IMG/VR virus record: IMGVR_UViG_3300045988_013393
Span: 1 to 44,246 of that record
Origin: a virus
Taxonomy: Duplodnaviria; Heunggongvirae; Uroviricota; Caudoviricetes
Strand: one strand, 5' to 3'
Length of the DNA: 44,246 bases
Both the position numbers and the translations under genes were made by a program. Under the pieces are notes generated by a model. It was not told where the DNA came from and ran no database searches. It was given only the letters and a program-made list of their open reading frames with translations. Shown piece by piece: positions 220-44,246 of this stretch (its first letter is position 1; every line of letters starts with the position of its first letter).

Positions 220-411
220 TTAGTCCTCATCATCTTCTAAGTCAGGGTACACTATGAAATCTCCAGGCCTTTGCAACTCAGCGCCAGCCATAAAATAACC
301 AAGTGCTTCGGCCCTTTCGGAATCTGTTTTAAACTCAGACAAAGGGTATCTTTCATAGAACTTGTTAATTAATAACGCCTGGTCAAACTTAGTCGCATCG
401 TAACCGCTCAT
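220..411 (-). CDS. Hypothetical small protein (63 aa), acidic C-terminus LEDDED
   Basis: ORF with ATG start; ATGA overlap with the upstream gene (translational coupling). Confidence 0.45.
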   Translation of the reverse strand: MSGYDATKFDQALLINKFYERYPLSEFKTDSERAEALGYFMAGAELQRPGDFIVYPDLEDDED

Positions 412-2202: not shown

Positions 2203-2388
2203 ATGCTAGAACGTCGGGGCCGAAGCACAAATCATCAAAGTAAGCACAAGGATTATACAATGACGAAGTTAATAGTTCCACAGTTGCGCCGCCAGAAACA
2301 CGGCGCTGATTTCTTCGCACCGGTAAAGATGAACCGCGCAATGCGTCGTATGCAGGAAGCCTTAGAACGCGCGGAGAAAAAGAAATGA
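2203..2388 (+). CDS. Hypothetical small basic protein (start uncertain, possibly 2260)
   Basis: ORF overlapping the primase start by ATGA; lysine/arginine-rich. Confidence 0.35.
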   Translation: MLERRGRSTNHQSKHKDYTMTKLIVPQLRRQKHGADFFAPVKMNRAMRRMQEALERAEKKK

Positions 2389-4592
2389 ATATTGTTTTTG
2401 CAACGCTGCGTAACACTTTCGATAAAAACCCGGTAGCCCGTGAAATGCCACTGGAGCAGTTTGTAGAGTATGTCTGCGATACATCGAAGCGCCTGTCCGT
2501 AGACCCGTCATGGACTAAGGAAGAGTACGACGCGGCCAAGATTAAGCAGAAAGCTATTGCGCCGGTTGGCGGTCGCCGTAAGAACGCGATTCTGGAAGAC
2601 AGTGTGGTTAAGTTCGATTTCGACCATCTAAACCGTACCCAGTACCGCGACCTCACCCGCAAATTCAAGAACGCGCCGTTCTTCAATATTCTGCACACAA
2701 CGGCGTCGCACCAGCACGCGTGTAAAAACGGTGACTACGCTTTCCGCGTTCTTGTACCGGCCCGCACGCCGTTTAACTCTAACGACGCGTGGATGGTGCA
2801 ACGTGCTATTTGTGCTGAGTTAGAAATAGACGAAGCATTGCGCGACCACTGCACAGAAGATGGCAACCGCCTTATCTACCTGCCGCATAAAGAGTCGAAG
2901 ATAACGGTTACAGAAGGGCGTGTTATCCGTGCCGAGCGGTACATCAAGAAAGCCGAAGAAATGGGGTTGCGTAAGCGTGAAGCTAAGACCCTTGCTGCCG
3001 ATGAGCATGGGCTTAACGCGGATATAGCGCATTTCTGCGAAGCGGAGCTTGGCCTTGACGCTTTATCTTCCGGTCGCGGGTACGAAGTGCCTTGCCCTAA
3101 CGAACACCTGCACACCGGCAAAGGCTCCACCAGCATCATGCTCGACGGTAAAGAAGTGCGCTTCGTGTGCCAGCACACAAACAACGGTGCTTGCACTGAG
3201 CTTAACCGCCGACAACATTTGGCCCTGCGTATGTGCGGCCTTCCGGACGAGCTTAACGTAGACAAGCAACCTATCAGTATTAACAGCATTCGTGCGGCTC
3301 TGCCTGATTTACCGGATGAAGAGATTGAAGAACTGCACCGCACAGAGAACGAGGAGCCTGTAACTTGTACACTGGAAGACCTTGAAGACGATGACGAGTT
3401 ACCTGAACCGGTAAAGGCTGATTTCGTCGTTGAAGGGTACATGCCGTCGGATTGCATCTGGGACATCGTCGGGGAATCCGGCACATATAAATCATTCTAT
3501 ACGCTGGGTATGATGTACCTGAGCGCCGCAGGGTACCGGTTTGCAGGCGCTGATACACAGCGTTGCCACCATTTCTATATTGACGGTGAGGGCGGTGCTG
3601 CCACACGCACCCGTATTGATGCACTCGCGGCTAAATACGGCGAGGAAGGTAAAGATTATGTACATGTCATCGATATGGGCGAAGTTGGCAAACTGAAAAG
3701 CCTGATTAAGCTAATGCGAGAAACTGCGGGTGGCGAACCCATCGGCATGGTCGCGTTCGATACTCTCAACCAGACACTGGCCCTGACGATTGATAAGTTC
3801 GACGAGAACAGTTCATCAACGGCAATCGGCATGGGTAAAGTTATCGCCATCCTTAAAGAAGTACGTGACGCAACTAAAGCCGCGGTGGGCGTCGTCCACC
3901 ATACACCGAAGGGCGGAAAGAAAGCCCGTGGCAGCGGGGCGCTGTATGCGGGTGTCGATGTGGAACTGACAATAGAACGTGCAACCGACCGTCAGATAAA
4001 CGTATACCACTCGAAATTTAAGCACGGGCCTCAACAGAAAACGGTTGGCATGGTGCTGGAGTCCGTACAGTTCCGTGAAGCGCCGCCGCCGAAAGAGTAC
4101 CGCGCGGTTGAGTTCCTGGGCAGCACAGAGGAATACGGCACAATCGTAAACCTCGACCTGCCGGAACCACACAAGGCGCTTGTTCTGATGCCGTGGGGCT
4201 TCGAGCCGTTCAAAACTGACGAGGAGAAAGAGCGGGAAGAAGGGTTAACTAACGAAGGTAAACAAAAAGTAAAGGAAGAAGTTAAACGCGGCAGGGATGA
4301 AGTAAGGAAGGAGTCGATACTTTCGGCACTGGAAGACCTGCAACAGTCAGATGACACAGGTCGCGGTTTTACTCAGCAGCAGATAGTGGCCCGTTCCGGT
4401 GACTTTTCTGTGACTAACACCCATCTTGATAAAATGCTGAAAGATGGTGAACTAATGCTAGGCTGTGATGCTAATGGCGAAGTAGTACCGAGAACGTATC
4501 GTATACCTGAAAGAATAGGGGATAGATTAAGGCCGAAGACAATATACGAACCGAATGAAATGCTAGTGGTTACTGAGGAAGATTTGGAATAG
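2385..4592 (+). CDS. Putative primase-polymerase / P-loop helicase replication protein (735 aa)
   Basis: N-terminal DxD (FDFDH) and H-rich (HTTASHQH) motifs suggest an AEP-like primase; Cys/His cluster CPNEHLH...CQH...C; Walker A GESGTYKS, Walker B MVAFD; acidic C-terminus ending EEDLE. Confidence 0.6.
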   Translation: MNIVFATLRNTFDKNPVAREMPLEQFVEYVCDTSKRLSVDPSWTKEEYDAAKIKQKAIAPVGGRRKNAILEDSVVKFDFDHLNRTQYRDLTRKFKNAPFFNILHTTASHQHACKNGDYAFRVLVPARTPFNSNDAWMVQRAICAELEIDEALRDHCTEDGNRLIYLPHKESKITVTEGRVIRAERYIKKAEEMGLRKREAKTLAADEHGLNADIAHFCEAELGLDALSSGRGYEVPCPNEHLHTGKGSTSIMLDGKEVRFVCQHTNNGACTELNRRQHLALRMCGLPDELNVDKQPISINSIRAALPDLPDEEIEELHRTENEEPVTCTLEDLEDDDELPEPVKADFVVEGYMPSDCIWDIVGESGTYKSFYTLGMMYLSAAGYRFAGADTQRCHHFYIDGEGGAATRTRIDALAAKYGEEGKDYVHVIDMGEVGKLKSLIKLMRETAGGEPIGMVAFDTLNQTLALTIDKFDENSSSTAIGMGKVIAILKEVRDATKAAVGVVHHTPKGGKKARGSGALYAGVDVELTIERATDRQINVYHSKFKHGPQQKTVGMVLESVQFREAPPPKEYRAVEFLGSTEEYGTIVNLDLPEPHKALVLMPWGFEPFKTDEEKEREEGLTNEGKQKVKEEVKRGRDEVRKESILSALEDLQQSDDTGRGFTQQQIVARSGDFSVTNTHLDKMLKDGELMLGCDANGEVVPRTYRIPERIGDRLRPKTIYEPNEMLVVTEEDLE

Positions 4593-4609
4593 GTAAAAAG
4601 AAAGGGGCG

Positions 4610-4825
4610 TTAAGCCCCTTCACCGAACGCCAGCCACTTGGCGTCTACTTCCAGCACTTCCGCCAGTTTAAACAGCGTCGCCGGGCGGACGTCCTGAGTC
4701 ACCCCAAGCGCAAGCTGGTTAATAGCGCCCTGGGAAACGCCCGCCAGAACAGCCAGACGGCGCTGGGAGATGCCGAGTTCTTTACGGCGTTGTTCTACAC
4801 GGATACCTAGTTCAGATGGTTGCAT
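4610..4825 (-). CDS. XRE-family HTH transcriptional regulator (Cro/CI-like, 71 aa)
   Basis: ISQRRLAVLAGVSQGAINQL helix-turn-helix; AAGGAG RBS; only minus-strand gene in the plus-strand early block, divergent from operator-containing promoters. Confidence 0.7.
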   Translation of the reverse strand: MQPSELGIRVEQRRKELGISQRRLAVLAGVSQGAINQLALGVTQDVRPATLFKLAEVLEVDAKWLAFGEGA

Positions 4826-4845
4826 GTCAATTACTCCTTAGTCAG

Positions 4846-4874
4846 TTGATATGTGAATAGTACCATATTAATTA
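4846..4874 (+). promoter_or_regulatory. Class A promoter, degenerate copy (TTGATA-N17-TAATTA) with GAATAG palindrome
   Basis: Upstream member of a tandem promoter pair between the XRE gene and ORF 4950. Confidence 0.4.
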
Positions 4875-4889
4875 TTTTAGAAAAGCCCA

Positions 4890-4918
4890 TTGACAAGTGA
4901 ATAGTTCGCTATTATAGT
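4890..4918 (+). promoter_or_regulatory. Class A sigma70 promoter (TTGACA-N17-TATAGT) with GAATAG-ttcg-CTATTA palindrome in spacer
   Basis: Consensus -35; same architecture at 7009 and 10777. Confidence 0.6.
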
Positions 4919-4949
4919 TAGCCTATACCAAACGAGAGGAGAGAAACAA

Positions 4950-5450
4950 ATGTTAGAACAGTTCTTAAAATTACTGGAGCGTTTCGTAGTTGCCCATGAA
5001 CTGATTGCGGCGAACAGTGCGAAACAAGTTGTTCATGCCGCCGCGCCGCTGGAAGTAGAGACGGTAGTGTATACCGAAGAATCAGCTTCCGAGTGCGAAG
5101 AAGAAACAACAAAAGAAATCACGGTTGAAGGTGAAGACGTCGTTGACACTAAACCTGCGGAGGAAGAGAAGCCGAAACGCAAGCCGCGTAAAGCTAAAGT
5201 AGAGGAACCAACGCCAGAGCCGGAAGAAGAGAAGGAAGAAGTCGATTACCAGTCTCTGCGTGACCAGATTCAGGCTATCGACGATGCAATTAACGAAGGC
5301 CCGAGCAATGCCGCGTGTGACGATTCGGATGAACTGCTAGAAGAGTTCACCGGCAAGAAGATGAAGATTGCCGCGATTAAAGACGAAGACCTGGCCGAGT
5401 ACCTGGAACGCCTGACGGCAATCAAGAACAAGTATTTCAAAGAAGAATAA
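4950..5450 (+). CDS. Highly acidic hypothetical protein (166 aa, Glu/Asp-rich)
   Basis: ORF with RBS; long acidic low-complexity segments (EEEKPKRKPRKAKVEEPTPEPEEEKEE). Confidence 0.5.
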   Translation: MLEQFLKLLERFVVAHELIAANSAKQVVHAAAPLEVETVVYTEESASECEEETTKEITVEGEDVVDTKPAEEEKPKRKPRKAKVEEPTPEPEEEKEEVDYQSLRDQIQAIDDAINEGPSNAACDDSDELLEEFTGKKMKIAAIKDEDLAEYLERLTAIKNKYFKEE

Positions 5451-5493
5451 CTATCTCGCGGCCTTCGGGCCGCTTTAACTGAGGGTCGGAATT

Positions 5494-5766
5494 ATGATTT
5501 ACCAACTCTACCGCGCCGTTGACAGGCGGGATAACATAGAGGCGTTATGGCTGTTGCGTGCGCCGTCCGGTGCACACCAGATGGAAGAGATGGCGTACTT
5601 AGGAAAAGTACCACGGCCTAAAGATATAGGCCGTCACGTGTCGCAGATTAAGCGCACGACTTTTGCCAAGCCTGACTTTTATGTCTTCGAGTCGATGTAT
5701 GGGTGGGCTATGCACTGCGACCATAAGACACGACATTTAATTGACCAGTGGGAGAGCAGGGTATGA
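5494..5766 (+). CDS. Hypothetical protein (90 aa)
   Basis: ORF, ATGA-coupled to the downstream nuclease gene. Confidence 0.45.
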   Translation: MIYQLYRAVDRRDNIEALWLLRAPSGAHQMEEMAYLGKVPRPKDIGRHVSQIKRTTFAKPDFYVFESMYGWAMHCDHKTRHLIDQWESRV

Positions 5767-7004
5767 TTCTAAAAGAACGCGGTGGCAATAACGACGTACA
5801 CGCATTACTGTCGCCATCCGGTGCTAAAAAGTGGCTTACCTGCGCCGCATCGCTGGCCTGTGAAAAAGACATTCCAAATACGTCAGGTAAAGCCGCCGTA
5901 TTGGGTACCGCCATGCACACCATAGCTGAGATGCACTTAAACCAGTACATCAAAGGCACTGCGCTGCCGTTAGAGCGTGAAGTCGGCGCTTACGTGCTGG
6001 ATGAAGGTAAAGGCCAGATTAAGGCGCTAATCAGCCCGATGAAAGGCGCGGTACTGATTACGGCGGATATGATTGAGCAAGTGCGCAAGTATACCGACTA
6101 CTGCAAAGCGATTATCGATGTAGCGACTTACGCCAAGCTGGAAATGCGGGTAAATCTTACCGAGGTATTGCATCCGGGCTACGAAGGCGTTGAGACATTC
6201 GGAACCGCTGACCTTGTTGCCGTTCAGGAACTGGCGAACACCGAAGAGCACATGCTCATTATTGGCGACCTGAAAACAGGACGGCATCGTGTCGAAGCGA
6301 AAGAAAACAAGCAGCTTATGCTTTACGCGCTGGGTGTTTATCGCCGACTAAAGCGACGTTATAGCATAACAACCGTTCGTCTGGTCATCTTCCAGCCTTA
6401 CGCTGGGGGCGCGTCAGAGTGGGACATCTCGGTTGAGGGCCTTGAACTGTTCGCTAAGTTTGCGCAGAAACGCGCGCTGTTGGCCCTTGATGCTTATTCC
6501 CGCGGCAAGAAGAACCTGAAAGCGTCGGACTTCAAGCCGTCTGTCGATGGTTGTCAGTGGTGTCGGTTCTCTGAACAATGCGCTGCGCGTACAAAAACCG
6601 TTAACTCGGTACTGGCGGAAGAACTGGAAGACGATTTTGCGCTGGAACTTACGCCGGAGCAACTCGTAGCTGAGTATGAGAAGTTGCCGTTGTTGCGCCA
6701 GCACATCGACAAGGTTGAGAAAGCTATGGCCGCCGCGTTGCATTCCGGTAAGAAAGTGCCAGGGTACAAACTGGTTGAAGGTCGTCCTGGTAATCGTGCG
6801 TGGAAAGATGCGGAGAAAGTAGCAGAACTCTACGGCGACAAGCTGACTAAAGAAGTGCTCATGTCACCTACCGAAGCTGTTAAAGTCATACCGGAAGAAG
6901 AACTGAAAGACTTCATTACCCGTAAGCCCGGCGCGCCATGCGTCACAACGGCGGATGACAAACGTCCTGAGTGGAATCAGGTTAGTGAAGAAGATTTGGA
7001 ATAA
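5763..7004 (+). CDS. PD-(D/E)XK exonuclease, Cas4/RecB-like with Fe-S cysteine cluster
   Basis: N-terminal Cys (WLTCAAS), D...DLK motif (ADLVAV...IGDLKTG), QxxxY (QLMLYALG), CQWCRFSEQC cluster; C-terminus ends SEEDLE. Confidence 0.65.
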   Translation: MILKERGGNNDVHALLSPSGAKKWLTCAASLACEKDIPNTSGKAAVLGTAMHTIAEMHLNQYIKGTALPLEREVGAYVLDEGKGQIKALISPMKGAVLITADMIEQVRKYTDYCKAIIDVATYAKLEMRVNLTEVLHPGYEGVETFGTADLVAVQELANTEEHMLIIGDLKTGRHRVEAKENKQLMLYALGVYRRLKRRYSITTVRLVIFQPYAGGASEWDISVEGLELFAKFAQKRALLALDAYSRGKKNLKASDFKPSVDGCQWCRFSEQCAARTKTVNSVLAEELEDDFALELTPEQLVAEYEKLPLLRQHIDKVEKAMAAALHSGKKVPGYKLVEGRPGNRAWKDAEKVAELYGDKLTKEVLMSPTEAVKVIPEEELKDFITRKPGAPCVTTADDKRPEWNQVSEEDLE

Positions 7005-7008
7005 AGTG

Positions 7009-7037
7009 TTGACACCTGAATAGTTAGCTATTATATT
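7009..7037 (+). promoter_or_regulatory. Class A sigma70 promoter (TTGACA-N17-TATATT) with GAATAG-ttag-CTATTA palindrome
   Basis: Consensus -35/-10 spacing, upstream of the SSB-like gene. Confidence 0.6.
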
Positions 7038-7093
7038 TCTAATCACTGGCCGGGCAGCTTCCCGGAGTAAACTGAAAACTGAGGAATCGAGAT

Positions 7094-7720
7094 ATGGGTA
7101 TTAAACTGAATCTGCGTAAAGTAAACACTGCATGGGTTAACGTATTTGAACGCGAAAAAGACCGTGAAAACGATGACGGCTCAATCACTAAAGGCCAGTA
7201 CAGCGCAACGATTATCATGCCGCCGGACCATGCTCAAATCGACGCGCTCTACGACACTGTTTACGCTGTAGTCGAAGAAGCATTGGGTGCCGCCGCTGCC
7301 GAAAAATGGATGAAGTCTAACTACGGCGAAGGTAAGCACATGGATAAATGTGCGATTAAAGATATTGCTGAGCGCGACAATCCGTTTGAAGACTTCCCGG
7401 AAGGCTTCTACTTCAAAGCGAAGGCTCAGAAACAGCCACTGATTGTAACCTCTAAAAAAGGTGAGACTCAGGTAGAACAGGACTTCAACGTAGACGGCGA
7501 ACAGATTGAAGGGGAACAGGTTTACAGCGGCTGCGTTGCTAACGTAAGCGTCGAAATCTGGTTCAGCCAGAAATACAAAGTCCTCGGCGTCAATCTGCTG
7601 GCGATTAAATACGTTGGTGAAGGTAAAGCGTTTGGTGGTTCTAAAGTTGCTGCGAGCGTCGATGACCTGGAAGACGACGAAGAAGACGAAGCACCGCGCC
7701 GCGAACGTCGCCGCCGCTAA
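7094..7720 (+). CDS. Putative ssDNA-binding protein (208 aa) with acidic-then-basic C-terminal tail
   Basis: Position between nuclease and DNA polymerase; C-terminus DDLEDDEEDEAPRRERRRR; assignment by context and composition only. Confidence 0.4.
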   Translation: MGIKLNLRKVNTAWVNVFEREKDRENDDGSITKGQYSATIIMPPDHAQIDALYDTVYAVVEEALGAAAAEKWMKSNYGEGKHMDKCAIKDIAERDNPFEDFPEGFYFKAKAQKQPLIVTSKKGETQVEQDFNVDGEQIEGEQVYSGCVANVSVEIWFSQKYKVLGVNLLAIKYVGEGKAFGGSKVAASVDDLEDDEEDEAPRRERRRR

Positions 7721-7740
7721 TATCTGAATCAATTTAACTA

Positions 7741-7762
7741 GGGCCCTTCATTGGGCCTTTTT
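7741..7762 (+). terminator. Intrinsic terminator (GGGCCC-ttcatt-GGGCC + TTTTT)
   Basis: GC stem followed by T5 immediately after the SSB-like gene stop. Confidence 0.6.
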
Positions 7763-7781
7763 ACTAAGGGTCGAAAATAAT

Positions 7782-9980
7782 ATGCCTAATCTATTGTATC
7801 TGGATACTGAGACATTCTCTGAAGCGGACTTAAAGAAAGTCGGATCGTATGCGTACGCGGAGCATCCGACAACCGAGATTATAATTTGTACATATGCCAT
7901 TGATGATGGGCCCGTAGAAGTATGGGATTGCACTTCCGAACCGGTAATGCCAATAAGCCTCCGCATTGCGCTGCGCAATGTTATGCGCGGACGTATGAGA
8001 ATTGTAGGTCATAACTTTTTAATGTTCGACAGGCTTGTTATGAAGCACTGCTGGGGCGTTGATATCAAGCCAAGAAACACCATTGACACGATGATTAGAG
8101 CGTTTCGTCACGCGTTGCCGGGTTCACTTGACGCATTGTGCGAAGTGCTGGGCGTATCTGCGGACAACGCGAAAGACAAACGCGGTAAAGCACTGATTCA
8201 GCGTTTTTCTAAACCGACGCCGAAGAACTACAAAATCCGCCGTTACACCGCCGAAACTCACCCAGATGAGTGGGCGCTGTTCATCAAGTACGCCGTGAGC
8301 GACATCACTGCGATGCGTGAAGTCTTCCATAAGCTGCCGCGTTGGGGTAACTCCGAGTTCGAAGACCGTGTACTGGAACTTGACCAGTTAATCAACGACC
8401 GCGGGTTTAAGGTTGATGTGGCGCTGGCGGAAGCTGCGATTGAGGCCGTAGAGAAACACAAGGCGCAGTTGCAGGAAGAAGCCCAACGCAAATACGGCGG
8501 CTCGCTAACTGGCAAAGACTTTCTACCTATTCTGCGGGAACTGGCCCCCGCGCACCGTATTCATAACGCGCAGAAGTCGACACTCAATGACCTGCTGGCG
8601 GATGATGATTTGCCAGATGACGCCCGCACGATTATCGAAATGCGCCTCGGGGCCGCGTCTACAGCATCGACGAAATATAACCCGCTGCTGCTGGGTCGCT
8701 CGTCGGACGACCGTCGTCGCGGTTGCTTGCAGTACGGCGGGGCAAAACGCACTTTGCGATGGGCGGGTAAAGGCTTCCAGCCGCAGAACCTGGCGCGCGG
8801 GTACTATCACGATGATGAACTGGATAAAGGCATTTCAGCGTTACTTAAGGGCCGTGCGCATCGCCGTTTTGATGTGGCCAAGCTAACGGCATCTACGGTT
8901 CGTAGCTGCATTATCCCGGAAGCCGGGCATAAGTTTGTCGTCGCCGATTACTCTAACGTTGAGGGTCGTGGGCTTGCGTGGCTGGCGGGCGAAGAAACCG
9001 CGCTCGATACGTTCCGCGCCGGACTGGATATTTACTGCGTAACCGCGGGCAAGATGTTTGGTATGGACCCTGATGACATTAAGAAAAACTTCAAGGAAAT
9101 CAGACAGATAGGCAAAGCATGCGAACTGGGTCTCGGCTACGAGGGCGGCGTCGGAGCGTTCGTTACGTTCGCCAAAAACTTAGGCCTCGACCTTATTGAG
9201 ATGGCAAAAACAATGGACGGGACTTTCCCCGACCACATCTGGGCTGCTACCGCACGTGGGTATGAGTGGGCGCGTATTCAGGAAGCCAAGCGACCACCGC
9301 ATCCCGGTGAAAAGGATGACCGACCATCATATATTCTGGACAAGAAAGTGTGGCGCACATGTGATGCAATCAAGCGTATGTGGCGCGAGTCACACCCGGA
9401 AACAGTAGCGTTCTGGCGCGACCTTAAAGATGGAATTTTAGCCGCTGTTCGTAATCCTGGTCGTGAATTTTGGGCCGGGGCACACTTGCGCCGGAATGGT
9501 GAAAGGGCTATCCGCATATGGCGTACCGTAGAATTTGATTCGTCGGGCAGGAAGGTTCCTGGCTGGTGGTTGTGTATGGAGTTGCCGTCAGGCCGTATCC
9601 TCTCGTATCCGGGAATCGGCGTTAGTGTGACAAAGGAAACAGACGAAGACGGACGGGTAAACACGAATGTGCGAATCAAGTATCAGGGTGAAAACCAGTT
9701 AACCCGCCAATGGACTACCCTGTACACCCACGGCGGCAAAGCCTGCGAAAACATTGTTCAGGCGCTGTGCCGTGATTTACTCGCATATGCGATGATTAAT
9801 GTTGAGGGTGGCGGGTATCCCATCGTGCTTTCGGTACACGATGAACTGGTGTGTGAAACTCCGGATACCCCAGAGTACACGGTGGCCGAACTGGAAAAAT
9901 TAATGTGTTCTCTGCCTGAGTGGGCAGAAGGCTTCCCTCTTGTCGCGGAAGGTGCGGAGATGAAGCGCTATGCTAAGTAA
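7782..9980 (+). CDS. DNA polymerase, family A, with 3'-5' exonuclease domain
   Basis: Exo I motif LYLDTETFS; polymerase motif A VVADYSNVEGR; motif C LSVHDELV. Confidence 0.85.
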   Translation: MPNLLYLDTETFSEADLKKVGSYAYAEHPTTEIIICTYAIDDGPVEVWDCTSEPVMPISLRIALRNVMRGRMRIVGHNFLMFDRLVMKHCWGVDIKPRNTIDTMIRAFRHALPGSLDALCEVLGVSADNAKDKRGKALIQRFSKPTPKNYKIRRYTAETHPDEWALFIKYAVSDITAMREVFHKLPRWGNSEFEDRVLELDQLINDRGFKVDVALAEAAIEAVEKHKAQLQEEAQRKYGGSLTGKDFLPILRELAPAHRIHNAQKSTLNDLLADDDLPDDARTIIEMRLGAASTASTKYNPLLLGRSSDDRRRGCLQYGGAKRTLRWAGKGFQPQNLARGYYHDDELDKGISALLKGRAHRRFDVAKLTASTVRSCIIPEAGHKFVVADYSNVEGRGLAWLAGEETALDTFRAGLDIYCVTAGKMFGMDPDDIKKNFKEIRQIGKACELGLGYEGGVGAFVTFAKNLGLDLIEMAKTMDGTFPDHIWAATARGYEWARIQEAKRPPHPGEKDDRPSYILDKKVWRTCDAIKRMWRESHPETVAFWRDLKDGILAAVRNPGREFWAGAHLRRNGERAIRIWRTVEFDSSGRKVPGWWLCMELPSGRILSYPGIGVSVTKETDEDGRVNTNVRIKYQGENQLTRQWTTLYTHGGKACENIVQALCRDLLAYAMINVEGGGYPIVLSVHDELVCETPDTPEYTVAELEKLMCSLPEWAEGFPLVAEGAEMKRYAK

Positions 9981-10378: not shown

Positions 10379-10527
10379 CGATGTTTGTATTTTGGTCGAT
10401 AGTAACCATGCTCGCGCTGTTACTCAGTGCGGGAATAGCTTCGATGTTCTATTATGGCCTGTTCTTTAAGTTTGTTGGTGTTGCCGTTCTCGGCGGGGCT
10501 TTCATCACCTGGATTCTGCGCTCATGA
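10375..10527 (+). CDS. Small membrane protein (50 aa)
   Basis: ATGA-coupled; two hydrophobic segments. Confidence 0.3.
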   Translation: MTMFVFWSIVTMLALLLSAGIASMFYYGLFFKFVGVAVLGGAFITWILRS

Positions 10528-10808
10528 CCCCGGAGGGCAAGATTCAGAAATACGCAAAAGAGCGATTCGAGGCCCTGGGGGGCCTCGTACGCAAATTGTC
10601 GTACGAAAATAGAGTGGGCGCTCCTGACCTGCTGGTAATTCTCCCCGGCGGCATCGTATGGTTCGTCGAGGTTAAGAAAGACGAAAATACGAAGCCTGAC
10701 CTGCACCAGTTACGAGAGCACGAGCGGATGCGTAAACGTGGTGCAAATATTTTTGTCGTCGGGTCGTTCAAACAGGTTGACGACCTAATAGCGAACTATT
10801 ATAGTTAG
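10524..10808 (+). CDS. VRR-NUC domain nuclease (PD-(D/E)XK)
   Basis: GAPDLLVILPGGIVWFVEVKK matches the VRR-NUC signature; sits upstream of an SNF2 helicase, a common phage pairing. Confidence 0.65.
   Translation: MTPEGKIQKYAKERFEALGGLVRKLSYENRVGAPDLLVILPGGIVWFVEVKKDENTKPDLHQLREHERMRKRGANIFVVGSFKQVDDLIANYYS
10777..10805 (+). promoter_or_regulatory. Class A promoter (TTGACG-N17-TATAGT) with perfect TAATAG-cgaa-CTATTA palindrome
   Basis: Lies inside the 3' end of the VRR-NUC gene, upstream of gene 10839. Confidence 0.5.
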
Positions 10809-10838: not shown

Positions 10839-11033
10839 ATGAAACATGAATACGACCGCAAACCAGCACGTGACATCGTACCGGGCGACATGATTTTCAA
10901 CGTTAAGACCCGTCGTCCTGTTGCCGTTGATACAGTGTTCGTCGAGTCGAACGGTAAACTGGTCATCGAAGATGTAACCGGTAACGTTACGGCGTTTGGG
11001 CGGAAGGAATTGGTACTCTACGTTAAGGGTTGA
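10839..11033 (+). CDS. Hypothetical small protein (64 aa)
   Basis: ORF with RBS AAGGAA; DIVPGDMIF motif resembles small ORF 40137-40301 (DLVPGDVLF). Confidence 0.45.
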   Translation: MKHEYDRKPARDIVPGDMIFNVKTRRPVAVDTVFVESNGKLVIEDVTGNVTAFGRKELVLYVKG

Positions 11034-12460
11034 TTATGTCTAAATTTATCCGTCGAGAGTACCAGAAGCTCATGACTTCGTTCATGCTGCAACACCCGCG
11101 CTGTAATATTTGGGCCTCGATGGGCGCGGGCAAAAGTTCCGCAACGATGTGGGTTCTAAACCGCCTGTTCCGCAACGGGCAGCTTACGGAAGAGGACCGC
11201 GTGTTAATCCTCGCCCCGTTACGTGTTGCATCCGGTACGTGGCCCGCAGAACAAACTAAGTGGGGTTTCCCTTGTCTGAGTGTCGTCGATGCGACCGGTA
11301 GCGAGAGGCGCCGCATCGCGGCGCTGGAGTCGGACGCTAACGTGGTATGCACCAACTACGAAGTTATCGAGTGGCTGATTGACTACTACGGCAAAGACGA
11401 CTGGCCTTTTACGGTTATCGTTGCCGATGAGAGCACGAAACTGAAATCATTCCGCAGTCGTTCAGGCGGCAGCAAGCGGGCAAAGGCGCTTAGCAAGGTT
11501 GCGTTCGGTAAGGTCAAGCGTTTTATAAACCTGACGGGAACGCCATCACCTAACGGCCTCAAAGACTTGTGGGGCCAGAACTGGTTTATCGACGCTGGCG
11601 AGCGCCTCGGCTCATCGTACACGGCATTCACCGACCGCTGGTTCAACTCGGTACAGAAAGGCAAATCGGCTATGGCGCGCGAATACCACGCTCGCCCTGG
11701 TGCGGATAATGAAATTCACCAGAAGATGAAAGACATCAGCCTGACGATTGACGCCGCCGAGTGGTTTGGTTGCGAAGCGCCGATTATTGTACCGGTTGAA
11801 ATTGACCTGCCGAAGAAAGCACGTCAGGCGTACATCGATATGGAGGAAAAGTTATTCGCGGAACTGGAGAGCGGAGAAGTTGAAGCGGCTAACGCGGCTG
11901 CGAAGACATCTAAGTGTTTGCAGATTGCGTCCGGTGCCGTGTATGTATCAGGGCCAGATGGCGAAGCAACGAAAGACTGGGAGAAAGTGCATGACACGAA
12001 GCTGGACGCGCTGGAGTCCATTGTTGAAGAGTTGCAGGGTGCGCCGTTACTGGTGGCCTATCAGTTCAAGCATGAACTGGAGCGCATCCTTAAGAGATTC
12101 CCACAAGCCCAGGCGTTTGCCAAAGGGGCCAAGGGTAATAAGCAGATGGAAGCGTGGAACCGCGGTGAAATCGAGATTTTGTGCGTGCATCCCGCATCAG
12201 CCGGCCATGGTTTGAATTTACAGGACGGCGGCCATCATCTGGCGTTCATCTCGCAAGGCTGGAACCTTGAGCACTATTTGCAGGTCGTGGAGCGTATAGG
12301 TCCGGTCCGCCAGAAACAGGCAGGCCACGAACGACCGGTGTTCCTTTATCACATCGTTGCTAAAGACACGCTGGACGAGGTTGTTGCCGCGCGTACCGAC
12401 GAGAAGAAAACGGTGCAGGAAGAGTTGCTTAATTACATGAAGAGACGAGGTAAGAAATGA
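11030..12460 (+). CDS. SNF2/DEAD-like superfamily 2 helicase
   Basis: Walker A MGAGKSS, DExx box VADEST, C-terminal helicase domain. Confidence 0.7.
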   Translation: MIMSKFIRREYQKLMTSFMLQHPRCNIWASMGAGKSSATMWVLNRLFRNGQLTEEDRVLILAPLRVASGTWPAEQTKWGFPCLSVVDATGSERRRIAALESDANVVCTNYEVIEWLIDYYGKDDWPFTVIVADESTKLKSFRSRSGGSKRAKALSKVAFGKVKRFINLTGTPSPNGLKDLWGQNWFIDAGERLGSSYTAFTDRWFNSVQKGKSAMAREYHARPGADNEIHQKMKDISLTIDAAEWFGCEAPIIVPVEIDLPKKARQAYIDMEEKLFAELESGEVEAANAAAKTSKCLQIASGAVYVSGPDGEATKDWEKVHDTKLDALESIVEELQGAPLLVAYQFKHELERILKRFPQAQAFAKGAKGNKQMEAWNRGEIEILCVHPASAGHGLNLQDGGHHLAFISQGWNLEHYLQVVERIGPVRQKQAGHERPVFLYHIVAKDTLDEVVAARTDEKKTVQEELLNYMKRRGKK

Positions 12461-44185: not shown

Positions 44186-44246
44186 CTATTGACCTGTTAC
44201 ACCACCTGTTACACCACCTGTTACACCACCTGTTACACCACCTGTT
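44186..44246 (-). CDS. C-terminal part of (GVTG)n repeat protein; stop at 44188-44186
   Basis: Minus-strand GVTG frame through the repeat ends with Gln then TAG just outside the array; joins ORF 1-216 only if the replicon is circular/permuted. Confidence 0.35.
   Translation of the reverse strand, partial: TGGVTGGVTGGVTGGVTGQ
44192..44246. repeat. Tandem direct repeat ACCTGTTACACC, 4 full copies plus 7 bp, continuous with array at 1-84
   Basis: Same unit as window start; window ends mid-unit. Confidence 0.9.

Follow-up and report, generated by a model that had tools for sequence, protein, structure and literature searches.

Three replication proteins of a tailed phage carry between them four copies of one short acidic peptide built around an Asp-Leu (D-L) pair, which is probably a docking motif. 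They are encoded in a 44,246-nucleotide stretch of viral DNA (Caudoviricetes; IMG/VR record IMGVR_UViG_3300045988_013393, positions 1 to 44,246), here called the window. The proteins are a helicase-primase (2385-4592, + strand, 735 amino acids (aa)), a DUF2800/PD-(D/E)XK exonuclease (5748/5763-7004, +) and an Enc34-ORF6/gp2.5-type single-stranded DNA-binding protein (SSB; DUF2815; 7094-7720, +). Megablast of positions 2385-9980 matched 466 phage records and assigned the window to a genome of the genus Kagunavirus (Guernseyvirinae). The closest records were Escherichia phages of that genus (88-93% identity), followed by a group of Salmonella Jerseyvirus. An earlier, sequence-only reading of this DNA had drawn attention to the common EEDLE end of the first two proteins. 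We consider it probable that these ends are two of the four copies of a short linear motif that would bind a single phage-encoded site.

As had been read, the helicase-primase open reading frame (ORF) finishes ...MLVVTEEDLE and the DUF2800 nuclease ...WNQVSEEDLE. The six-frame translation of the window contained EEDLE twice, each time directly before a stop codon. The two tails, V-T-E-E-D-L-E plus stop and V-S-E-E-D-L-E plus stop, are encoded at 4569..4592 and 6981..7004 (both +). The looser pattern [DE]DL[DE] occurred four times in an approximate set of 73 ORFs (13,790 aa): at residues 331 (linker) and 732 of the helicase-primase, residue 415 of the exonuclease and residue 190 of the SSB. This restriction to three replication proteins exceeds chance. 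Two of the copies had been overlooked, namely C328-TLEDLEDDDE-338 in the primase-helicase linker (3366..3398, +) and S188-VDDLEDDEEDE-199 at the start of the SSB acidic stretch, after the oligonucleotide/oligosaccharide-binding (OB) fold (7655..7690, +). Their consensus is [C/A/V]-[S/T]-[D/E]-[D/E]-D-L followed by acidic residues.

Homologue alignment showed the tail to be kept in close homologues and in distant genera, so that the motif is deeply conserved at the protein level. Among the best 120 listed homologues of each protein the tail was retained (119/120 for the helicase-primase); these are near-identical (96-98% for the exonuclease, 87-100% for the helicase-primase) and provide within-genus evidence only. 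Deeper sampling drew on 50%-cluster representatives, 80 viral contigs and six annotated phages of other genera. Both C-terminal copies persisted in Jerseyvirus, SE1-like phages, Dhillonvirus HK578, eiAU and four metagenomic lineages (30-57% identity), with x-[S/T/A]-[D/E]-x-D-L-x(-x) at both gene ends. The helicase-primase and exonuclease tails read SATDDDLKD and EATDEDLKN in HK578, SEEEDLEN and ATDNDLAN in SE1, ATNSDLED and VKDDDLVD in eiAU, and ASDEDLNS and ASDEDLS in contig L060. D416 and L417 of the exonuclease were invariant in 17 sequences, down to 34% identity. A ..DL(x)(x) end was found in 19/20 of the best 50%-cluster exonuclease representatives, the exception (P0256) being a 113-aa N-terminal fragment; the contigs of distant DUF2800 representatives are 2.5-2.9 kb fragments without a helicase gene. 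The linker block C-x-x-x-D-L was kept in all 15 aligned helicase-primases (VCTDEDLEDE, VCQDEDLMDE, CDEEDLDDE). In the SSB, F180, G181, G182, D191, L192 and D194 were invariant across ten sequences, down to 38% identity, and the other lineages carried ATDDDLGDDDD, CSDEDLGDDDE or ANDDDLDDDDE. SSBs of this D-L clade share the pattern …GEAFGG-x3-5-[A/S][T/S]D[D/E]DL[G/D]DDD…. All four copies, with D-L invariant, were retained in about eight lineages with just 30-50% identity and differing codons.

Such ends could in principle be nothing specific, either acidic low-complexity sequence or a nucleotide signal in which GAGGAGGA codons serve as the Shine-Dalgarno site of an overlapping gene. The exonuclease end (…GAGGAGGATTTATAATG) does overlap the start of a small gene in phages 22664BS2 and Jersey S102, where that gene starts on the exonuclease stop (TAATG; L002 9497-9507 and L001 10475-10485, respectively). 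Likewise, the 22664BS2 helicase-primase end (…GAATGA; L002 6275-6283) overlaps a small-gene start on its stop; in each case acidic codons stand at Shine-Dalgarno distance. A small ORF of the window (220-411, -) also ends in PDLEDDED. Against this, no gene starts at Shine-Dalgarno distance after either tail within the window, and the internal and SSB copies have no Shine-Dalgarno context. What is invariant is D-L, not acidity alone, and the motif is lacking in the other ~12,400 aa of ORFs. The small-ORF tail, moreover, was not kept in the only homologue found. We regard the non-specific explanation as highly improbable; a Shine-Dalgarno role of the tail codons is a secondary use, explaining neither the internal copies nor the window. 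In 22664BS2 and Jersey S102 the exonuclease ends ..EEDL, the final E being missing.

Two further candidate copies were rejected. ORF 220-411 (-), whose end …YPDLEDDED is similar to the SSB acidic block, was dropped as a fifth copy on comparison with its sole homologue in the compared loci, which ends …YWEEDEEY. The end of a VRR-NUC-like nuclease, ..QVDDLIANYYS, was likewise dropped: its DDL is not kept in orthologues, and the DNA there is a promoter copy.

The near-identity of the two gene ends at the DNA level, also noted from sequence, was real: the 24-nucleotide (nt) strings at 4569-4592 and 6981-7004 differ at three positions (21/24 identical). No further copy of the 24-mer was found in the window at up to three mismatches (0 expected). 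The sequence-only reading took this identity as a sign that gene ends are exchanged as modules together with downstream promoters. On that account, a cassette of gene end and promoter was copied or converted between the genes, and the similarity is the footprint of recombination. Besides the 21/24 identity, the account draws on a GAT-TTR codon pair at both tails in nearly all Kagunavirus and Jerseyvirus genomes, and tail matching across lineages might also come from occasional copying. However, the identity ends exactly at the peptide-coding 24 nt and both flanks are unrelated. Given the same peptide, agreement in at least 5/6 synonymous codons has P≈0.055 under the codon usage of this phage; the identity arises because both genes encode the same peptide. 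In HK578, SE1 and eiAU the two tails are written in different codons (e.g. GAT GAT GAC CTG versus GAC GAG GAT TTA), indicating that constraint acts on the peptide. D-L conservation across 30-50% identity requires peptide-level selection, whatever the origin of the ends.

The accompanying claim, that a class A promoter follows each gene, held for the exonuclease, where a -35 TTGACA lies at 7009, 4 nt after the stop, but not for the helicase-primase. The latter stop is followed by a terminator-like hairpin (4600-4621) and then by an opposite-strand XRE gene, with the promoter 298 nt downstream. That promoter (TTGACA-17-TATAGT; 4890..4918, +) is a strong sigma-70-type element of a multi-copy family. 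The near-consensus sigma-70 promoter at 7009..7037 (+) belongs to the same family and drives the SSB-polymerase operon. The family consensus is TTGAYA-N2-TGAATAGT-N4-CTATTATA. With six or more members in the window (1262, 4846, 4890, 7009 and 10777 on the + strand; 32494 on the - strand), the family is not tied to EEDLE gene ends. A site of this family was also seen at about 22553 (-). The elements hold an inner inverted repeat, AATAG…CTATT, which may be an operator; two copies stand in tandem in the divergent region beside the XRE gene and one lies inside the VRR-NUC 3' end. The promoter and leader before the SSB are also kept in a distant SE1-like phage. The leader (7036-7093; …atcactggccgggcagcttcccggagtaaactga…) is almost identical in that Salmonella phage (L004), where the proteins are only ~50% identical. 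The leader holds a small CCGGG/CCCGG hairpin but folds no better than shuffled sequences (z=+1.3).

A further point for exchange is that motif-coding DNA is located at mosaic junctions between phages. DNA similarity of phage K1ind2 to the helicase-primase gene is confined to nt 1002-1887 (90%) and the last 60 nt, and that of 22664BS2 to nt 1-1007 (94%) and the last 58 nt. The breakpoints fall near window positions 3386-3391 and 4533, that is, at the linker motif and the tail-coding end, placing motif-coding DNA at the inter-phage junctions. The last 58-60 nt form an island of 88-90% identity beside DNA without detectable similarity, and many Kagunavirus and Jerseyvirus phages match only residues 343-735 of the protein. 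Weighed against the unrelated flanks, the codon statistics, the differing codons elsewhere and the multi-copy promoter, a recent cassette-exchange event is already largely refuted, and we give copying of gene ends in general very little chance.

The duf2800-gp2.5-polA module has been described as widespread (PMC8093625), and DUF2800 was found in 1,620 phage records. Tails were read in nine further lineages carrying this module. The Chi-like phage 118970_sal1 carries FDDEDEV on its primase (..PFDDEDEV), WDDEDDDEV on its exonuclease (..AWDDEDDDEV), WEDEV on its SSB (..AWDEDEDWEDEV) and ..VWDDEE on its SNF2 helicase. In Proteus phage Saba, the exonuclease ends ..VWDDD and the SSB has ..VWDDEDEW... 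BPP-1 matches DDFADV..DLV with DEFDDI..DLV (exonuclease ..DDFADVSGETVEDLV, SSB ..DEFDDITEGAAAADLV). Staphylococcus phage SMSAP5 matches EDDFDKL with EDDFDEL (exonuclease ..EDDFDKL, SSB ..EDDFDELDTDDEDFL), and its primase-helicase ends ..ESLEDLI. DDFxDL-type tails are thus common to the exonuclease and SSB of BPP-1 and the Staphylococcus phage. Exonuclease and SSB likewise carry ..TDFQDLS.. and ..EDFEDLS.. in Xfas53, ..LEQEFAN.. and ..LEDEFAD.. in a Paenibacillus phage, and ..DDFKNIE and ..SDFGDID.. in a Bacteroides phage. Tail flavour is therefore lineage-specific and common to the replication proteins of that lineage.

This co-variation was quantified by permutation, scoring the best ungapped 6-mer between two tails by BLOSUM62 with one representative per lineage. 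Across ten deep lineages, exonuclease tails scored 22.3 against their own SSB and 17.7±1.3 when shuffled (p=2.4e-4); exonuclease and primase tails also agreed (p=0.015, six lineages). The signal appears only between deep lineages. Together with D-L conservation and the SSB and linker copies, it lends support in outline to the earlier proposal of replisome-docking tails; the companion idea of module exchange at the DNA level was not supported.

By analogy with known systems, above all T7, we infer that the motif mediates binding, with two candidate partners. All four copies would bind the same phage-encoded basic/hydrophobic site, and this shared site would link unwinding and priming, end resection and ssDNA coating, much as the ..DF tails of gp4 and gp2.5 do in T7, where they bind basic patches of the DNA polymerase. 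The receptor is more likely to be encoded by the phage than by the host, since phages of the same host differ in their tails, as do Jerseyvirus and Chivirus, both on Salmonella, and Kagunavirus and T7, both on E. coli. One candidate receptor is the ssDNA-binding concave sheet of the SSB. It would permit a hand-off, in which the helicase or nuclease tail would hold the SSB until nascent ssDNA displaces the tail. The family A polymerase (7782-9980, +; Pfam DNA_pol_A, PHROG 17) is the second candidate. Its own C-terminus (...AEGAEMKRYAK) is conserved and non-acidic, and was without the tail motif in every lineage examined.

Recruitment of a host factor is the converse idea: the D-L peptide would mimic a host signal, such as an SSB-tail-like ligand, and bring in a replication or repair factor. 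All D-L-clade phages infect Enterobacterales. The acidic tip of E. coli SSB is a known hub ligand for replisome and repair contacts; it ends ..DIPF, and the clamp-binding consensus is QL[SD]LF. The Kagunavirus motif resembles neither. A role of SSB acidic tips as interaction hubs is stated in general terms in PMC5686142. On the other hand, tail type tracks phage lineage and not host, with D-L in Jerseyvirus but W-D-D-E-D-E-V in Chivirus, both on Salmonella, and D-F in T7 on E. coli. Host recruitment is, in our estimation, very unlikely. E. coli SSB and the acidic domain of T4 gp32 resemble the present case in placing a short acidic-hydrophobic peptide with many contacts on a disordered tail. 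The topology is inverted, however: there a single SSB tail serves many clients, whereas here several clients and the SSB itself carry the same tail, which implies that the ligands compete for a single receptor site.

The closest precedent is T7, in which a gp2.5-fold SSB and a hexameric helicase-primase bear matching acidic tails with one key hydrophobic residue (..EDGDF and ..NDTDF, compared with ..DDLE.. and ..EEDLE in Kagunavirus), and a tailless family A polymerase is encoded alongside. The gp4 tails bind two basic patches of gp5, tethering the polymerase and increasing processivity; their deletion lowers processivity from 17 kb to ~5 kb (PMC12593628). Several features differ. The key residue is Leu at a variable distance from the end, in contrast to the strictly C-terminal Phe of T7. 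The exonuclease is also tailed, whereas T7 gp6 has no such end, and a second copy stands in the helicase-primase linker. In the SSB the motif lies internally, ahead of acidic and basic blocks ending RRERRRR. The helicase-primase itself appears to combine an archaeo-eukaryotic primase (AEP) with a RepA-like helicase, unlike the Toprim-DnaB fusion of T7, and tail binding would hold by analogy.

The SSB family offers a structural precedent. Crystal structures of Enc34 ORF6, gp2.5 and two further DUF2815 proteins place the acidic tail in trans, within the concave ssDNA-binding sheet of the adjacent molecule (PMC5686142). The window SSB belongs to the same Pfam family, Enc34_ssDNA-bd (PF10991; 58.3 bits against a cut-off of 26, E=1e-15, aa 5-198), and matched PHROG 112 (E=9e-43) and PDB 4JG2 (E=4e-4). 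In Enc34 ORF6/DUF2815 SSBs (PDB 4JG2, 4KLK), as here, the OB fold ends in …FGG/…FGE and the acidic tail comes next. The 4JG2 tail GGRTNAADDFTTIEDD (AADDFTTIEDD) aligned residue for residue with GGSKVAASVDDLEDD of the window SSB (ASVDDLEDD), with DDF opposite DDL. Enc34/Chi-type tails differ in being W/F-rich, ending ..EDEV and having no basic block, and the Enc34 literature does not mention the same-peptide ends of exonuclease, primase and SNF2 helicase in those phages. Biochemical evidence for preferential ssDNA binding and strand annealing exists only for Enc34 ORF6 and T7 gp2.5 (PMC5686142).

An acidic stretch followed by RRERRRR at the SSB end, as described earlier, was confirmed in the translation of 7094-7720. 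The acidic segment SVDDLEDDEEDE directly follows the OB fold (…AFGG) and precedes the basic end P-R-R-E-R-R-R-R (7694..7717, +), the C-terminal end reading SVDDLEDDEEDEAPRRERRRR. The PRRERRRR end is atypical for the DUF2815/PF10991 family. PR[RK][RK]RR blocks are kept throughout D-L clade SSBs, in one to three acidic/basic alternations, and no basic tail block was found in the SSBs examined from Chi-like, BPP-1, Staphylococcus, Streptococcus and Enterococcus phages. As these lineages share tails among their proteins yet lack the block, RRERRRR is unlikely to be a general receptor of acidic tails, and its proposed partnership with them is weakened. The Kagunavirus SSB carries the DDLE motif itself and hence resembles another client no less than a receptor. 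RRERRRR may serve in DNA contact, self-association or charge balancing. This polyampholyte SSB tail differs between lineages in how many blocks it has (SSBs of L003, L005, L056, L060 and L068). One acidic/basic block is present in Kagunavirus and Jerseyvirus and up to three or four in HK578, eiAU and L056, suggesting repeat-like expansion and contraction of the tail.

The exonuclease matched Pfam DUF2800 (PF10926) over its full length (231 bits, 2.5e-68), PDDEXK_1 (PF12705; 3e-10) and PHROG 69, annotated 'exonuclease'. Nuclease motif residues D155, D174-L-K176, Q189 and Y193 were invariant among 17 aligned sequences, as were four cysteines, C32 near the N-terminus and C269, C272 and C278 (CX2CX5C) after the nuclease core. 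The cysteines could be ligands of an Fe-S cluster. An AlphaFold2 model (predicted local distance difference test score, pLDDT, 85.6) retrieved AdnA (1e-5) and Cas4 (6e-4) in Foldseek, along with AddB, Dna2, MGME1 and Exo5 and, among distant matches, RecE and lambda exonuclease. Template-modelling scores were low (0.2-0.4) because the alignment was confined to the core. Motifs, cysteines and structural matches make the 'Cas4-like' label of the sequence-only reading fair for the fold. A CRISPR-associated Cas4 proper was ruled out, the gene being flanked by orf90 and the SSB gene in a phage replication module. The mechanically called ORF opens at GTG 5748, whereas all 120 listed homologues are 412-414 aa long, nearly all 413. 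The true start is probably ATG 5763, giving 413 aa. This codon and the orf90 stop overlap in an ATGA, an arrangement suggestive of translational coupling.

The tail of this exonuclease model bears on another alternative, in which each tail would contact the protein that bears it, either contributing to the fold or mimicking DNA in an auto-inhibitory way, with no shared partner. The tails of different proteins would then be alike because each covers a DNA-binding surface in a similar manner. The last 18 residues were modelled with pLDDT 72-87 and a helical turn (87 for 401-410, 72 for 411-418, short helix at 414-417), so that the tail may pack intramolecularly. The three proteins are all DNA-binding, and removal of the Enc34 ORF6 acidic tail alters discrimination between DNA substrates (PMC5686142). 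Nevertheless, the same six-residue motif is found on three unrelated folds and in a linker, and tails co-vary between proteins across lineages, which independent cis contacts do not require. The DUF2815 crystals show the tail bound in trans, and a related DUF2800 protein has a predicted disordered C-terminal region (bioRxiv 10.64898/2026.07.14.737667). We judge the intramolecular role unlikely.

Other observations besides the modelled exonuclease tail weigh against shared docking. The Leu stands at -1 to -6 from the C-terminus, whereas the F of T7 and E. coli SSB tails is always the last residue. Helicase and exonuclease tails within the D-L clade showed no co-variation beyond the consensus (seven lineages, p=0.23), and primase and SSB tails no excess similarity by the same score (p=0.5-0.8). 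The permutation tests cover few lineages with an ad hoc 6-mer score, and acidic stretches are compositionally easy to evolve. With these points included, we still hold the docking motif to be the probable reading.

Phage pairs of exonuclease and annealing protein offer a further parallel: lambda Exo-Red beta and RecE-RecT, in which a PD-(D/E)XK 5'-3' resection nuclease is likewise encoded beside an ssDNA annealing protein and a specific contact between the two is expected. In lambda, according to the entry for PDB 6M9K, the C-terminal domain of the annealing protein binds the nuclease. Here, by contrast, the candidate contact is the terminal peptide of the nuclease, common to the replicative helicase. 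The fold also differs, being of a RecB/Cas4-type monomer with four cysteines and not the toroid of lambda Exo.

The helicase-primase matched PHROG 3228, 'replicative helicase-primase', over its full length (aa 1-735; E=0, 1076 bits). Its P-loop helicase domain was recognized by Pfam AAA_25/RepA-like (aa 328-511, 6e-18). The layout comprises a predicted N-terminal primase region, the linker, the helicase domain, a C-terminal region and the tail. The XRE-type helix-turn-helix regulator (4610-4825, -; Pfam HTH_3, 2e-12) sits between the helicase-primase stop and the next promoter, outside the motif system, and other genes occupy its place in phage 22664BS2. Upstream of orf90 (5494-5766, +) lies the gene for an acidic 166-aa protein (4950-5450, +; PHROG 3127, annotated '13.88 kDa late protein'). 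Counterparts of this protein are encoded ahead of DUF2800 in Chi-like, Saba, Staphylococcus, Enterococcus, Paenibacillus and Corynebacterium phages and share the C-terminal helix …K(L/I)(S/A)xIK(E/D)E(H/D)(Y/F/L)…; those of the Chi-like phage and Saba also finish in an acidic tail. The duf2800-gp2.5-polA module may thus have a fifth conserved component that has gone unrecognised. The VRR-NUC-like nuclease (10524-10808, +) and an SNF2 helicase (11030-12460, +) lie beyond the polymerase. A 12-nt tandem repeat, ACCTGTTACACC, occupies 1-91 and 44190-44246 and runs off both window ends. The window looks like a complete, circularly joined genome cut inside the array, and the array may represent a terminus, pac site or iteron.

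Docking by acidic tails is a known principle, a textbook replisome tether in T7 that has been studied in very few systems. New here are a Leu-based motif in four copies on three proteins, the copies on a recombination nuclease and in a linker, an internal SSB copy with a basic end, and lineage-specific matching. We found no description of a shared motif in the duf2800-gp2.5-polA module in the open-access literature. Three departures from T7 stand out, namely the nuclease tail, the two helicase-primase copies and a peptide that shifts in step across proteins by lineage. The same logic would here extend to a large, therapeutically used group, comprising Kagunavirus, Jerseyvirus, Dhillonvirus, Chi-like and many Gram-positive temperate phages.

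A tentative extension, which we think has a limited chance of being correct, is a family-wide 'tail code': in every duf2800-gp2.5-polA lineage, clients and SSB would carry the same lineage-specific acidic-hydrophobic peptide and compete for one groove. Besides the SSB, the clients would comprise exonuclease and primase/helicase, in some cases together with the SNF2 helicase and a small acidic protein; the groove would be the ssDNA-binding face of the SSB or the polymerase. If such a code exists, matching tails would define mutually compatible replication modules. For mosaic recombination, such tails would form either a barrier or a junction, a role to which the breakpoints at motif-coding DNA point. 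The polyampholyte SSB tail of the D-L clade could in addition promote self-association, or a clustering of the replisome akin to a condensate. DUF2800 nucleases and gp2.5-type SSBs trigger retron and other defence systems (PMC8093625; bioRxiv 10.64898/2026.07.14.737667), and knowledge of their interaction surfaces therefore has practical value. The short tails offer a cheap, direct handle on replication-recombination coupling in these phages and bear on the limits to replication-gene exchange between them.

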